From: Escherichia coli
GTDB taxonomy: Bacteria > Pseudomonadota > Gammaproteobacteria > Enterobacterales > Enterobacteriaceae
Assembly: GCF_003018255.1 (NCBI RefSeq)
Contig: NZ_CP027440.1
Length of the DNA stretch: 64,000 nt
Strand: one strand, 5' to 3'
Shown here: positions 52,831-64,000 of the stretch, in pieces
Position numbering within the stretch: position 1 is the stretch's first letter
Layout of the letters: the number at the start of each line of letters is the position of its first letter
The notes under the pieces: model-generated
Database searches by the model: none
Told to the model about the DNA's origin: nothing
What the model saw: the letters and a program-made list of their open reading frames with translations, nothing else
Position numbers and translations under genes: made by a program

Positions 52831-54432
52831 TCAGGATACCACTGGCGCAATTTGTAACTGCGCCGACTCATGTCGTGCTACTTCATGCTCTTCAAGGGTA
52901 AATACCGCCACGCGCGACGAAAGATGGTCGGCCTGATTCGCCAGTTGTTCTGTTGCCACCGCCGCTTCTTCTACCAGGGAGGCGTTCTGCTGTGTCACCT
53001 GATCCATCTGGCTGACAGCCTGTGCAACCTGCTCAATCCCCCGCCGTTGTTCTTCCGAGGCCGAAGCAATTTCTCCCATAATGTCGTTCACGCGGGTCAC
53101 CGAACTGACAATATCAGTCATGGTCGCGGCGGCGTTATTCACCAGTTTCGAACCCTGCTGGACACGATTGACTGACTCTTCGATCAGCCCTTTGATCTCT
53201 TTTGCTGCCTGGGCGCTACGGCTGGCAAGATTGCGCACTTCACCTGCCACTACCGCAAAACCACGCCCCTGCTCTCCGGCGCGAGCCGCTTCCACTGCCG
53301 CATTCAGGGCCAGAATATTGGTCTGGAAAGCAATGCCGTCGATAACGCTGATAATGTCGCCAATTTTTTGCGAGCTGGTAGCGATCTCCTGCATGGTGTG
53401 AGTCATGGTACTGACCTGAACACCGCCCGCCTGCGCCGTTGTCGCGGCATTTTTTGCCAGTTCCGACGCCTGTCGTGCGTTATCGGCGTTTTGCCCTACC
53501 GTGGCGGTTAATTGCTCCATACTGGCGGCCGTTTGTGCCAGCGATGCCGCCTGCTGTTCGGTGCGACTTGAGAGATCGTTATTGCCTGCGACAATCTCCG
53601 CGATACCAATGTGCATCTCCTGGCTTCCCTTACGCACATCACTTACCGTCCCACGCAAAGCCTGCTGCATGGTCTTCAGGCTGGCAAAAATGGCGGTGAT
53701 CTCATTGCGACCATACACCGCAATCGGACGTGCCAGATTACCCGCAGCAATGCTGTCAAAATGGCTACCGATAATGGCCAGTGGTTGAACAATCATCTTG
53801 CGCGTCCACCACAGCGCACTGCTGATGTAGATCGCCGCAACAATAATCATGCTGATAAACACCAGCGCCGAAATGTGATAGTTACGCTGGCTTTGCGCAC
53901 TGGCACTTTCCAGCACATGGTTGATCTCCAGCTGCCAGGCCTCAAAGTTAACGTCAAACGCATTCTGTGATTCCTGCACCGGCGCAGTGAGGAAATCCGA
54001 AAGTTGATTACTTTCAAGCCAGGTCGCCTGATGTTCGAGATCGTTGTGCCAGCGGGCAAAACTTTTCTCCGTCTCTTTTTGCAACGCCCTGACGTGCTCG
54101 TTGCCCGCAGTCATCGCCATAAAACTTTTAAACAGCGTGGTGGATTGCGTCAGACTGGCGCGCGCCGTCGTCATCAACGTTTTAATGTCATCCGCCGGAT
54201 AGCTAAGCGCCGTCAGAGTGCCCGCTTTGTTCAGCGCGGTACTGGCCTGTAACATTACCGCCCGAGTTTGCGCTAATGCCGCACGTTGCTGATTGCTCTG
54301 CTCGACCTGATTCAGTCGTTGCAAATCGTCGCGAAATGCCCAAAAAGACATGCCGTTACTGCCAATCTGCAAGATCCCGCAGAGAATCAAAATTAAAAAC
54401 AGCGTGGTCGAAATTCGAATACGATTAAACAT
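52831..54432 (-). CDS. tap: Methyl-accepting chemotaxis protein IV (dipeptide / pyrimidine sensor)
   Basis: 533 aa from MFNRIRISTTLFLILILCG; MCP signalling domain; position downstream of tar. Confidence 0.9.
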   Translation of the reverse strand: MFNRIRISTTLFLILILCGILQIGSNGMSFWAFRDDLQRLNQVEQSNQQRAALAQTRAVMLQASTALNKAGTLTALSYPADDIKTLMTTARASLTQSTTLFKSFMAMTAGNEHVRALQKETEKSFARWHNDLEHQATWLESNQLSDFLTAPVQESQNAFDVNFEAWQLEINHVLESASAQSQRNYHISALVFISMIIVAAIYISSALWWTRKMIVQPLAIIGSHFDSIAAGNLARPIAVYGRNEITAIFASLKTMQQALRGTVSDVRKGSQEMHIGIAEIVAGNNDLSSRTEQQAASLAQTAASMEQLTATVGQNADNARQASELAKNAATTAQAGGVQVSTMTHTMQEIATSSQKIGDIISVIDGIAFQTNILALNAAVEAARAGEQGRGFAVVAGEVRNLASRSAQAAKEIKGLIEESVNRVQQGSKLVNNAAATMTDIVSSVTRVNDIMGEIASASEEQRRGIEQVAQAVSQMDQVTQQNASLVEEAAVATEQLANQADHLSSRVAVFTLEEHEVARHESAQLQIAPVVS

Positions 54433-56807: not shown

Positions 56808-59699
<2,892 letters not shown>

Positions 59700-59703
<4 letters not shown>

Positions 59704-60587
59704 GCTTCCTCGGTTGTCGTCTGTTGTTGCGGATTTTTCACCGCACGCACATGCTCTTCCAGTTCAATAAACGACGGACGTTCGCTGGAATAGAGCGTTT
59801 TGCGACCAAACTCAACGGCGATAGGCGGTGCGTAACCGTTCAGATTAGATAGCAGTGTGACTTTGACGCACTGCATCATTTTGCTGGTTTCGGCGCTTTT
59901 CTGACGTAAAACACTCGCTAATGGGGAAATAAATCCGTAAGCCAATAAAATACCGAGGAAAGTCCCCACCATCGCATGTGCGATAAGCGCCCCCAGCTCG
60001 GCGGCAGGACGATCGGCTGAACCTAACGCGTGAACGACCCCCATTACAGCCGCAACAATACCAAACGCCGGAAGTGAGTCCCCGACCAGCGCCAGACTGT
60101 TCGCCGGGACTTCTGCCTCGCTTTCGTGCGTCTCAATCTCTTCATCCATCAGAGCTTCGATTTCGAAGGTGTTCATGTGACCGCTGATAATCAGGCGCAG
60201 ATAATCGACGATAAATTCAAGCATGACGCTATCCGCAAGGATGCGTGGGTAGCTGGCGAAGATCTCGCTCTCACGGGGATTTTCAATATCACGTTCCAGC
60301 GAAAACATCCCCATCTGCCGCGATTTCGCCATCAACCGATAAAGCAGAGCCAGCAGATCCATATACATTGCTTTGGTGTATTTGGAGCGACGAAACAGCA
60401 ACGGCAGCGCCTTCAGCGTGCCTTTAATCGCTTTGCCATTATTGCCGACGATAAACGACCCAATCCCTGCACCGGCAATAATCACCAGTTCAGCGGGTTG
60501 ATAGAGTGCTCCAAGGCTTCCACCGGTCATCAAATAACCGCCGAAAACTGTACCGAGAACAACCAGGTAACCTAATAAGATAAGCAC
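59700..60587 (-). CDS. motA: Flagellar stator protein MotA
   Basis: 295 aa; 4-nt overlap with motB. Confidence 0.95.
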
Positions 60588-60655
60588 GACATCATCCTTC
60601 CACTGTTGACCATGACAGGATGTTCAGTCGTCAGGCGTTAACACGCGATAGGGGC

Positions 60656-60749
60656 AAAAAAAAGCAGCGGTACGTCGTTACCGCTGCTGGAATGTTTCGC
60701 CACACCGTATCAGTTAAACAGCCTGTACTCTCTGTTCATCCAGCAGTTG
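60656..60749 (-). ncRNA. motR: Candidate MotR-like sigma28-dependent small RNA (motA leader transcript ending at an intrinsic terminator)
   Basis: A sigma28 promoter lies inside the flhC 3' coding region, followed about 60 nt downstream by a strong hairpin (GCAGCGGTAACGACGTACCGCTGC) and a run of 8 T before motA. The predicted RNA is about 94 nt. Confidence 0.45.
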
Positions 60750-61292
60750 TGGGATAATATCGGCAGGATTCTGGGAAAGTTTACGTCTTTTTACTGCCCG
60801 GGATGGCGGCTGACATAAGCTGCAGGCAAAGCTGCCAACAGGCTGGTGAGCGTGGGTAATAAAATTGCCGCCGCAGCAGTTGCAGCTGGAAAGTTGCAGT
60901 AATCCACTTTCAACAAACCGCACCAATGTCCAGGCACGGGTTAATGCCAGCAGCGGTCCCTCTTCTGCTTGCGGGCACTGTTCAAGGTATAAACGGTAGG
61001 CTTTGATCACCGCATCGACGCCATTACACAAACCGGTTTTCAGTAAAAACTGCCATGCGTTACAGAACATCGAAGCATGAACGTTTTGTTCCCAGGTCAT
61101 AAACCAGTCGGTTGAGAATGGCAGCATGCCTTTCGGCGGTGGGCTTCCGCGCAGTTCTTTATAGAGTTTTATCAGGCGTCCGCGACTTAACTGTGTTTCG
61201 CTTTCCAGCATCTGCAAACGAGCGCCCAGGGTGATCAATTCCATTGCCAGCTGAATATCCCGCGCTTCCTGAACAATGCTTTTTTCACTCAT
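60714..61292 (-). CDS. flhC: Flagellar master regulator subunit FlhC
   Basis: 192 aa with the C-terminal Cys4 zinc site (CNCCGGNF...CSLC). Confidence 0.95.
60757..60784 (-). promoter_or_regulatory. sigma28 promoter within the flhC 3' end (motAB-cheAW and MotR promoter)
   Basis: Minus strand TAAACTTT, 11-nt spacer (cccagaatcct), GCCGATAT; two mismatches to the sigma28 consensus. Confidence 0.6.
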
Positions 61293-61294
61293 GA

Positions 61295-61654
61295 TCAGGC
61301 CCTTTTCTTGCGCAGCGCTTCTTCAGGCTGATTAACATCATTCAGCAAGCGTGTTGAGAGCATGATGCCGGTATGAATTTGCTGGAGATCGTCAACGCGG
61401 GAATCTTGCGTCAACTGAGTAATCGTCTGGTGACTGTCAAAACGGAAGTGACAAACCAGTTGATTGGTTTCTGCCAGCTTAACCATTTGCGGAAGAGTCA
61501 GTGCCGCTAACGTTGTCGCCATTTCTTCATTTATGCCGAGACGAAACATAGCGGACGCTTTGTCCTGAACAATCAGACGCTGTGCAAGTAGTAAATATGA
61601 CAAGTTGATGTCATAAATGTGTTTCAGCAACTCGGAGGTATGCATTATTCCCAC
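61295..61654 (-). CDS. flhD: Flagellar master regulator subunit FlhD
   Basis: 119 aa as drawn ([28 protein letters not shown]); the true start may be the internal MHTSELL (116 aa). Confidence 0.95.
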
Positions 61655-62425
61655 CCAGAATAACCAACTTTATTTTTATGCGGTCTCACCGCACCCCGTG
61701 ATGTCGCCGGGAAGCCCCGGTAAAAAATAATTAGCATTAGAATAGTTGCGATAAGCTGCAATAGGCAGAGCCCCTTTGTGGGATTTAATAAGTCCTTACA
61801 AATAGAAGGGGTTCTTTACACTTATCTAAGATTTTTCCTAAATCGACGCAACTTTACTCGTCACTACACGCACATACAACGGAGGGGGGCTGCGATTTTC
61901 AATAATGTGTGATGCAGATCACACAAAACGCTCAATTACTTAACATAAATGTATAAGTCATACTTTTGTTTTGGGTGTATTTCAATCTGTTAAAAAGTTT
62001 TTCGCGACGCTAGCAAGCAAAAATGAAACAGGAATAATAGAAATGGGATGTTGCGCACAGTTAAAATAACTCACCGTAAATAATCATCTGCTATAAATAA
62101 TTGCTTTAATGCAATACCAGATAAGCTATTTTTAAACAGACACTTACTGCACAACAAACTAATTAAATACAAAGAAAGGCAACAATCAACTTAATGTTGA
62201 TAAAATGTTTTACATATATTAACCACTTGTTTAATATGGAGAATCAGTACATTATTTTCTTATAATTACAGTTGAAATCATATGATCACCGAGAGTGATT
62301 GATTAATTGTATTTACTAATAATCACGCTAATATTTACCTGTTTGACTGAGTTGGGATTGCGTCGTTTCTCCATTAGGAGTAAAGCTTTAATGTCACCTG
62401 AAGTTCACAGAATAAGGAACAGGTT
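61655..62425. promoter_or_regulatory. AT-rich divergent regulatory region of flhDC and uspC, with no IS insertion
   Basis: 771 bp noncoding and visibly AT-rich; flhD and uspC diverge from it. No transposase ORF or IS terminal inverted repeats are visible. Confidence 0.6.
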
Positions 62426-62854
62426 ATGAGCTATAGCAATATTCTTGTCGCTGTTGCGGTTACACCGGAAAGTCAGCAACTGCTGGCAAAAGCGGTATCT
62501 ATCGCCAGGCCAGTAAAGGGACACATCAGTTTAATTACTCTCGCTTCCGACCCGGAAATGTACAATCAATTAGCTGCGCCGATGCTTGAAGATTTACGCA
62601 GCGTGATGCAGGAAGAAACGCAAAGCTTTCTTGATAAGTTAATTCAGGATGCGGGGTATCCCGTTGACAAGACGTTTATTGCCTACGGTGAGTTAAGCGA
62701 ACATATTCTGGAAGTTTGTCGCAAATATCATTTCGATTTGGTGATTTGCGGTAATCACAATCACAGTTTCTTTTCGCGAGCATCCTGCTCGGCGAAAAGA
62801 GTGATTGCCTCAAGTGAGGTCGATGTGCTGTTAGTTCCACTTACGGGAGATTAA
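62426..62854 (+). CDS. uspC: Universal stress protein C
   Basis: 142 aa MSYSNILVAVAVTPESQQLLAKAVSIARP..., UspA fold. Confidence 0.85.
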   Translation: MSYSNILVAVAVTPESQQLLAKAVSIARPVKGHISLITLASDPEMYNQLAAPMLEDLRSVMQEETQSFLDKLIQDAGYPVDKTFIAYGELSEHILEVCRKYHFDLVICGNHNHSFFSRASCSAKRVIASSEVDVLLVPLTGD

Positions 62855-62860
62855 CCGCTC

Positions 62861-64000
62861 CTACGCAAGCTTAGGAAAGGTAGCAACTTTATCGCGCTGC
62901 TGGCTTTCCGCGCTTCGCGGAACTATCTGCTTTAGGTCGCTAATGAAGCACTCCTGCCAGTGGTTAATATCGTTTTTCACGATAACGTCCAGCATTTCTG
63001 CATGACGGGAAATACGTTCCGCCAGCGACATAGTCAATGCACGATCCAGCGCAGCTGCAACTTCGTCACGATCGTAGGGATTAACAATTAACGCCGACGT
63101 TAACTCGTTTGCTGCTCCCGCAAATTGCGAAAGAACAAGTACGCCCGGGTTGGCTGGGTCCTGAGCGGCAACATACTCTTTTGCCACCAGGTTCATCCCG
63201 TCACGCAGTGGCGTCACTAAGCCCACGTCAGAGTAGCGGAATATTTTCATCAGTAATTTACGGTCAAAATGCTGATTCAAATAATAAAGCGGCGTCCAGC
63301 CTAATTGCCCGTATTTACCATTAATTCGTCCAGCTTCATTTTCGAGCTGATGACGAATATCCTGATAGGCTTGCACATCACCACGCGACGTTGGTGCAAT
63401 CTGGGTATAACGAATTTTACCATGATGCTGCGGATATTTTTCCAGCAACGCTTCATAGGCGAGAAAACGCTCCGGCAAACCTTTGGAATAATCCAGCCGT
63501 TCGACAGAAAAGATATTTTGTACGTTTTTCAGTTCCGCTTTAAGTTGCGCCAGTTTTGGCGGCAGTGGTCCGGCAGCCTGTTTCGCTATTTCTTTCGGTT
63601 CAATGCCGATCGGGTAAACTTCCGTTCGAAACGCTTTGCCGCAGGCCGTATGGCTTTTTGCGCTACGTGTCGTGACGCGGGTCAGGTTAGAAAGGCAATC
63701 CAGGAACGCCAGACGATCGTTCTCCGTCTGGAAACCCAGCAAATCATAATCACAAAGCTGTTCAAGCAAGGTGTCATATGTCGGCAGCGCGTTGAAGATT
63801 TCCGGCGTCGGGAAAGGAATATGCAGAAAGAAACCAATGCGATTATTCACTCCCCGTTTGCGTAATTCATGCGCAAAGGGCAACAGGTGATAATCGTGGA
63901 TCCAGATAATGTCATCGTCTTGCAACAGCGGCAGTAATTTATCTGCCAGCAACGCATTTACGCGTAGATAGCCATCCCAGGCAGGACGCTGAAATTGCAC
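62861..64000 (-). CDS. otsA: Trehalose-6-phosphate synthase (3' part of gene; N-terminus beyond window edge)
   Basis: 379 aa C-terminal fragment ending ...DLKQIVPRSAESQQRDKVATFPKLA; GT20 family. Confidence 0.9.
   Translation of the reverse strand: MQFQRPAWDGYLRVNALLADKLLPLLQDDDIIWIHDYHLLPFAHELRKRGVNNRIGFFLHIPFPTPEIFNALPTYDTLLEQLCDYDLLGFQTENDRLAFLDCLSNLTRVTTRSAKSHTACGKAFRTEVYPIGIEPKEIAKQAAGPLPPKLAQLKAELKNVQNIFSVERLDYSKGLPERFLAYEALLEKYPQHHGKIRYTQIAPTSRGDVQAYQDIRHQLENEAGRINGKYGQLGWTPLYYLNQHFDRKLLMKIFRYSDVGLVTPLRDGMNLVAKEYVAAQDPANPGVLVLSQFAGAANELTSALIVNPYDRDEVAAALDRALTMSLAERISRHAEMLDVIVKNDINHWQECFISDLKQIVPRSAESQQRDKVATFPKLA

Follow-up and report, generated by a model that had tools for sequence, protein, structure and literature searches.

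The stretch of E. coli DNA analysed here, referred to as the window (64,000 nucleotides), almost certainly carries the normal, uninterrupted divergent control region between flhDC and uspC of a natural, non-K-12 E. coli. The IS-free state of this region is already known and ordinary. Gene order (motB-motA-flhC-flhD, then the spacer, then uspC-otsA) agrees with the annotation of MG1655 and of natural isolates. The spacer between flhD and uspC is intact and free of IS1 and IS5, as had been stated in a preliminary description made from the sequence: it shows no homology to these elements and no IS ends, and is colinear with IS-free strains. Both FlhD and FlhC are intact.

The AT-rich character attributed to the spacer is borne out by its GC content of 35.0%, compared with 51.0% for the 64-kb window; the part upstream of the transcription start site (TSS) and promoter is lower still, at 32.9%. 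The region had been delimited as 771 bp, from 61655 to 62425. The region itself is real, but its length is 780 bp and it begins at 61646, a boundary shift of 9 bp that stems from a GTG-extended ORF. Position 61655 is the base after this 119-aa version of flhD (which ends at 61654), whereas the RefSeq flhD of every strain compared is 351 nt long, which puts its ATG at 61645 in the window. The FlhD protein is identical to that of K-12, and FlhC has 6 nucleotide differences but no amino acid differences from MG1655. All flagellar region-II and chemotaxis ORFs in the window are full length. One of these, tap (52831-54432), is annotated as a pseudogene with an internal stop in the nearest relative, strain JNE23-011; the two copies differ there by a single base. 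The regulatory landmarks listed in Table 1 were placed by carrying the MG1655 annotation over through alignment.

Table 1. Coordinates of genes, regulatory landmarks, unoccupied insertion targets and census tiles in the window.
Feature	Position	Strand	Details	Basis
motB	58777-59703	minus		ORF list
motA	59700-60587	minus		ORF list
MotR sRNA homologue	60656-60750	minus	flhC 3' end / motA 5' UTR	MG1655 annotation transfer
flhC	60714-61292	minus	192 aa; protein as MG1655 FlhC	ORF list
flhD	61295-61645	minus	116 aa; ATG at 61645; protein as MG1655 FlhD	ORF list and annotation
AsflhD antisense RNA homologue	61624-61844	plus	overlaps leader	MG1655 annotation transfer; PMC9600491
flhD-uspC spacer	61646-62425		non-coding, 780 bp	
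flhDC 5' leader	61646-61844	minus	199 nt (K-12, 198)	
Putative flhDC TSS (+1)	61844	minus	G on mRNA strand	homologous to K-12 TSS, record position 1978395
AT-rich upstream region	61845-62425		shared by divergent flhDC and uspC promoters; 32.9% GC; 16 YTAR tetranucleotides	
-10 hexamer	61851-61856	minus	TAAAGT, -12 to -7	homology
-35 hexamer	61874-61879	minus	TTGTAT, -35 to -30; 17-nt spacer to -10	homology
CRP site	61908-61923		TGTGATGCAGATCACA; centred at -71.5; perfect TGTGA-N6-TCACA palindrome	homology
IS5 target TTAA, unoccupied	61940-61943		-96 to -99; single copy	PMC5100188
8-bp target of MG1655 IS1H, unoccupied	61944-61951		CATAAATG; single copy	alignment with MG1655
IS5 target CTAG, unoccupied	62010-62013		-166 to -169; single copy	PMC5100188
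IS5 target CTAA, unoccupied	62159-62162		about -315; single copy	PMC5100188
TTAA, unoccupied	62191-62194		IS5-occupied in T159A (CV601 derivative); single copy	
uspC	62426-62854	plus	142 aa	ORF list; comparison with JNE23-011 and K-12
otsA	from 62861	minus		ORF list
Census tile 1	61646-62045		uninterrupted in 5268/5426 (97.1%)	
Census tile 2	61846-62245		uninterrupted in 5247/5426 (96.7%)	
Census tile 3	62026-62425		uninterrupted in 5370/5426 (99.0%)	

The region upstream of flhD was rightly called a known insertion hotspot, which is documented in K-12 laboratory strains (PMC5100188, PMC5493358); MG1655 itself carries IS1H. Reported insertion points in such strains, counted from the TSS, are -96/-99, -166, -303, -315 and positions as far as -476 (PMC5100188); the spacer has also been treated as an IS5 target (PMC5493358). 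Insertion of an IS in the AT-rich upstream zone raises flhDC expression in K-12 (PMC5100188, PMC5493358). It is in K-12 laboratory strains that both the hotspot and its effect of raising motility have been observed (PMC5100188, PMC5493358, PMC11836070).

The whole 64-kb window was searched by blastn (word size 7, E≤10) with IS1H from MG1655 and IS5 from T159A. These searches returned just chance matches of 12-26 nt, with zero within 61646-62425. A fuzzy search of the spacer (at most 5 or 4 mismatches) found no sequence resembling the terminal repeats of IS1 or IS5, and the inverted repeats located there by a repeat finder are short and imperfect, the top one being 22 nt at 73%. An IS-activated allele, that is, an element with terminal repeats and a duplicated target lying between about -96 and -476, was not found in the window. 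IS30 (approximately 1.2 kb) is excluded from the spacer by its 780-bp length and its colinearity, and the same grounds exclude ISEc33.

For comparison with the flhD upstream sequence of MG1655, that sequence was first stripped of IS1H and of one of the two copies of the duplicated 8-bp target. The two spacers then correspond along their whole length: 744 positions match, 34 are substituted, and a single genuine indel of 1 bp separates them; the CRP site and TSS were mapped by homology and the landmarks are intact. The spacer is likewise colinear with those of 19 E. coli of diverse lineages that lack an IS there, with lengths of 778-782 bp. The first panel of 11 strains beyond MG1655 included O157:H7, O103, ATCC 8739, Nissle 1917, BW25113 and the divergent strain 2013C-4282. 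Insertions or deletions relative to IS-free wild-type regions were specifically looked for, and the only ones present are of 1-3 bp. Because diverse lineages share this colinear spacer, the IS-free state is ancestral, in agreement with the preliminary description.

The same data bear on the idea that an IS was once present and was then lost by excision, so that the window would be a revertant rather than ancestral. There is a precedent for such loss: the parental IS5 in the flhD promoter of MC1000 was lost in the biofilm isolate JS111 (PMC5100188). In the window, however, there is no duplicated target or footprint, and the known target tetranucleotides and the IS1H 8-mer are each present in single copy. 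Moreover, only one indel, a single base pair in the leader, separates the window from its relatives; it is common to the whole allele family, and the closest relatives are IS-free too. A perfectly precise excision would leave no trace in the sequence; even so, we regard a revertant as extremely unlikely.

Chance cannot serve as a test for the absence of an element, and what matters is how the window compares with the population. Three overlapping 400-bp tiles of the spacer were therefore compared with 5,426 complete E. coli genomes, a tile being scored as uninterrupted if one place in the genome covered at least 80% of it. Tiles of this size were chosen since a 1.1-kb query would bridge IS1-sized insertions under the joining rule of the search. 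Bounds derived from the three tiles place the proportion of genomes with any spacer interruption between 3.3% and at most 7.2%. The IS-free spacer is the species default, present in about 93-97% or more of complete genomes. For this reason, its absence of IS is nearly uninformative on strain background, and the use suggested for it in this respect does not survive the census, in which individual tiles were uninterrupted in 96.7-99.0% of genomes.

The exact IS1H junction of MG1655 is found in 55 genomes, approximately one third of the interruptions in the hotspot tiles. Among the matches listed, low coverage was seen for ER1709, 5A, T159A and CV601gfp, plus the clinical strain TUM13881. The first four look like K-12 derivatives, judging by their strain names and by the 100% identity of T159A to BW25113 around IS5. 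In TUM13881 (NZ_CP128907.1), yecH and tyrP lie directly next to an IS1 located upstream of flhD, which implies that a deletion associated with this IS1 has removed the uspC side of the spacer together with the genes beyond. Strain background is indicated instead by the SNP allele of the spacer, which is why earlier work used the spacer to mark strains (PMC5007776). In agreement with the census, IS30 at the uspC-flhDC spacer was found in that study in 0/845 animal and human isolates, and IS at this position marked a specific wastewater clade. In wastewater-adapted E. coli of phylogroup A, the uspC-IS30-flhDC marker (PMC5007776) occupies the locus described here, which served in that study as a polymorphic strain marker; the window carries no insertion at all.

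The preliminary description compared the window with laboratory K-12 stocks. This comparison is inapplicable because the window is not K-12: its spacer is 95.6% identical to those of BW25113 and MG1655, and the complete genomes closest to it come from natural isolates. The closest spacers are those of strains 104 (NZ_CP029164.1) and JNE23-011 (NZ_AP045067.1), to which it is 99.7% identical (778/780 bases). Between 124 and 169 complete genomes reach 99% identity in the spacer region. Locally, natural isolates come closest, at 99.7-99.8%, the best-matching complete genomes come from human, chicken and pig isolates, and no K-12 genome is among the best matches listed. The combination of a K-12 spacer allele with K-12 flanking genes, which would denote membership of that lineage, was not found. 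The sequence comparisons point to a natural, non-K-12 E. coli lineage as the source of the window.

Origin of the window from an ancestral, pre-insertion K-12 stock, either BW25113-like or an IS-free isolate of MG1655, would also account for an empty hotspot, and such stocks do exist, BW25113 having an IS-free spacer of 779 bp. Against this stand the 34 substitutions and the 1-bp indel that separate the 780-bp spacer from both BW25113 and MG1655, its near identity to strains 104 and JNE23-011 instead, and three differing residues in UspC. We consider a K-12 origin to have a negligible probability. The UspC residues concerned are Q62, R99 and Y101 in the window, with His at each position in K-12. 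The uspC gene shows no nucleotide differences from the copy in JNE23-011 (annotated as WP_000122432.1). The same protein is annotated in O157:H7 Gim1-1, E1, MEW and strain 104, and the K-12 allele of UspC may be the unusual one.

The relationship of the natural lineage to JNE23-011 is not uniform along the DNA. Over 40000-64000 divergence is blocky, reaching 0.9-1.6% in torZ-yecM, 2.0% in flhA and 1.1% in motB, and the stretches flhB-cheA and motA-otsA are almost free of differences. This pattern is the usual recombination mosaic. Across these 24 kb the closest complete genome is 99.5% identical, and no complete RefSeq genome is close to the window along the full length of the comparison. Identity to K-12 is 95.6% in the spacer, compared with 98.6-99.4% in the flanking genes: the spacer evolves several times faster than the genes on either side.

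Overall, the window resembles the IS-free strains 104, JNE23-011 and BW25113 in gene order, in a spacer of approximately 780 bp, and in its promoter, CRP site, leader and AsflhD promoter. It differs from K-12 in the 34 substitutions, an extra base in the leader, TAAAGT in place of TACAGT at the -10 position, and a consensus rather than a near-consensus CRP half-site. With the IS-activated K-12 alleles (IS1H at -100 to -107 in MG1655, IS5 at -96 to -99 in RP437/MC1000-type strains, and IS5 at about -350 in T159A/CV601) it has the underlying regulatory DNA and the target sites in common; unlike them, it contains no IS, its targets are in single copy, and the AT-rich zone is continuous with the promoter.

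The -35 hexamer is identical in 20/20 panel strains. The -10 hexamer varies at its third position (61854): the window shares TAAAGT with strains 104, JNE23-011, E1, EE72d and 300033, and the remaining 14/20, including K-12, have TACAGT. The polymorphism is clade-specific. The CRP half-site at 61908 reads CGTGA in K-12 (BW25113 and MG1655) and TGTGA in the window and in 10/11 other strains of the first panel. By this comparison, the atypical CRP site is that of the reference strain K-12, which alone in the panel has C at 61908. Strains EE72d and 300033 have a further variant of the site. In the literature the CRP site is located 72 nt upstream of the flhDC start (PMC9600491), in agreement with the transferred position of -71.5. 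This site was found together with homologous -35 and -10 elements, and the TSS position to which they refer is assigned by homology only.

A scan of the spacer with the sigma-70 consensus yielded 3 promoter-like sites, compared with 3.7 ± 2.1 in shuffled sequence, and did not list the flhDC promoter itself. Its omission from a consensus scan agrees with a weak, activator-dependent promoter. No uspC promoter was assigned, since promoter-like sites are no commoner in the spacer than in shuffled sequence. A consensus scan for terminators found 0 in the spacer.

The flhDC leader is longer than that of K-12 because the allele carries one extra base. Positions +1 to +31 do not vary among 14 aligned leaders, which represent 13 distinct alleles, and neither do the GGA motifs at +7 to +9 and +50 to +52. 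Two CsrA sites close to the 5' end protect the transcript from RNase E (PMC7652899), and the conserved GGA motifs fit these described protection sites. Between +31 and +80 (61764-61813) lies a hypervariable patch that includes indels of 1-3 bp. The promoter and 5' end of AsflhD (61581-61630, 50 nt) are identical to those of K-12, and the MotR homologue has 2 substitutions relative to K-12. The window has the leader features expected of a wild-type flhDC control region: a length close to 198 nt, conserved 5'-proximal elements, and an AsflhD promoter inside flhD. An Rfam scan of 60400-63000 (E≤1) matched no family, MotR and AsflhD included.

A hairpin predicted from +19 to +95 has the variable patch on both arms and a conserved GUAAGGAC near its apex, and some of the changes in its arms seemed compensatory. 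This candidate was rejected. RNAalifold applied to the 14 leaders did not recover the hairpin (covariation term, +0.11), and when the arms of natural variants were swapped in a 6 x 8 design, natural combinations proved no more stable than chimeras (-18.2 and -17.6 kcal/mol, respectively; permutation p = 0.28).

The window differs from strains 104 and JNE23-011 by two private substitutions in the spacer, 62148 T (C>T, at -304) and 62199 G (A>G, at -355), neither of which occurs in any of the 19 panel strains. The tile that contains them is matched at no more than 99.5% identity by any complete genome. Over the 4.3 kb from motA to otsA only 3 positions differ from JNE23-011, and these two are among them. 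With G at 62199, the inverted repeat ATCAAC-TTAAT-GTTGAT (62185-62201) becomes perfect, with arms of 6 bp; at its centre is the TTAA that serves as the IS5 site of T159A. An excess of private SNPs in the spacer was considered and rejected: two such SNPs are not significant given that the spacer evolves several times faster than the flanking genes.

The preliminary description had also called the control region unselected. The absence of an IS cannot show a lack of selection, and the region carries both the clade-specific -10 variant and the two private upstream SNPs. The region might accordingly be IS-free and yet not regulatorily neutral, with TAAAGT at -10 or the SNPs at 62148 and 62199 altering expression of flhDC or uspC. 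This reading is compatible with a normal, uninterrupted control region, and draws on the split at 61854 that sets 6/20 panel strains apart from the rest, on the two SNPs shared with no panel strain or complete genome, and on the inverted repeat completed by 62199 G. It is weakened by the fast evolution of the spacer, within which two SNPs are no significant excess. The third position of the sigma-70 -10 hexamer is weakly constrained, and no mapped binding site at -304 or -355 of flhDC is known to us. On balance, an effect of these variants on expression seems unlikely. A stronger version, in which 62148 C>T and 62199 A>G are adaptive cis-regulatory mutations that retune flhDC or uspC, as a point-mutation counterpart of IS activation in a natural lineage, is less probable again and we give it little credence. 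Nevertheless, output may differ quantitatively from that of K-12, given the -10 variant and the SNPs at -304 and -355.

For a normal, uninterrupted control region, the start of transcription, the binding of regulatory factors and the level of expression can be projected from K-12 by homology. A weak sigma-70 promoter (TTGTAT, 17 nt, TAAAGT) would initiate flhDC at 61844 on the minus strand, and would depend on cAMP-CRP bound at the consensus palindrome centred at -71.5. Post-transcriptional control would be exerted through the 199-nt leader, by means of its two GGA motifs, target regions for small RNAs, and the overlapping antisense AsflhD. The approximately 580 bp of AT-rich DNA upstream, which is common to uspC, would be a zone of negative control by H-NS and other repressors, as in K-12, where it binds H-NS, LrhA, OmpR, RcsAB, Fur, IHF, MatA and YjjQ (listed in PMC5493358). 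Since no IS separates this zone from the promoter, flhDC is expected to be under native, conditional control and not derepressed as in IS-carrying laboratory strains.

The suggestion that the region would be informative on native motility fares less well. The motility of natural isolates was found to correlate with class III (PfliC) activity and not with PflhD activity (PMC5289928), and the region alone is for that reason a poor predictor of motility.

An flhDC hotspot empty of IS carries information only inside K-12 laboratory pedigrees. Elsewhere it is the default and should not serve as a marker, and it matters little. Outside these pedigrees, the lineage signal lies in the SNP haplotype of the fast-evolving spacer. 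The flagellar master operon of the window has a species-typical control region, and FlhD, FlhC and the downstream motility and chemotaxis genes are intact.
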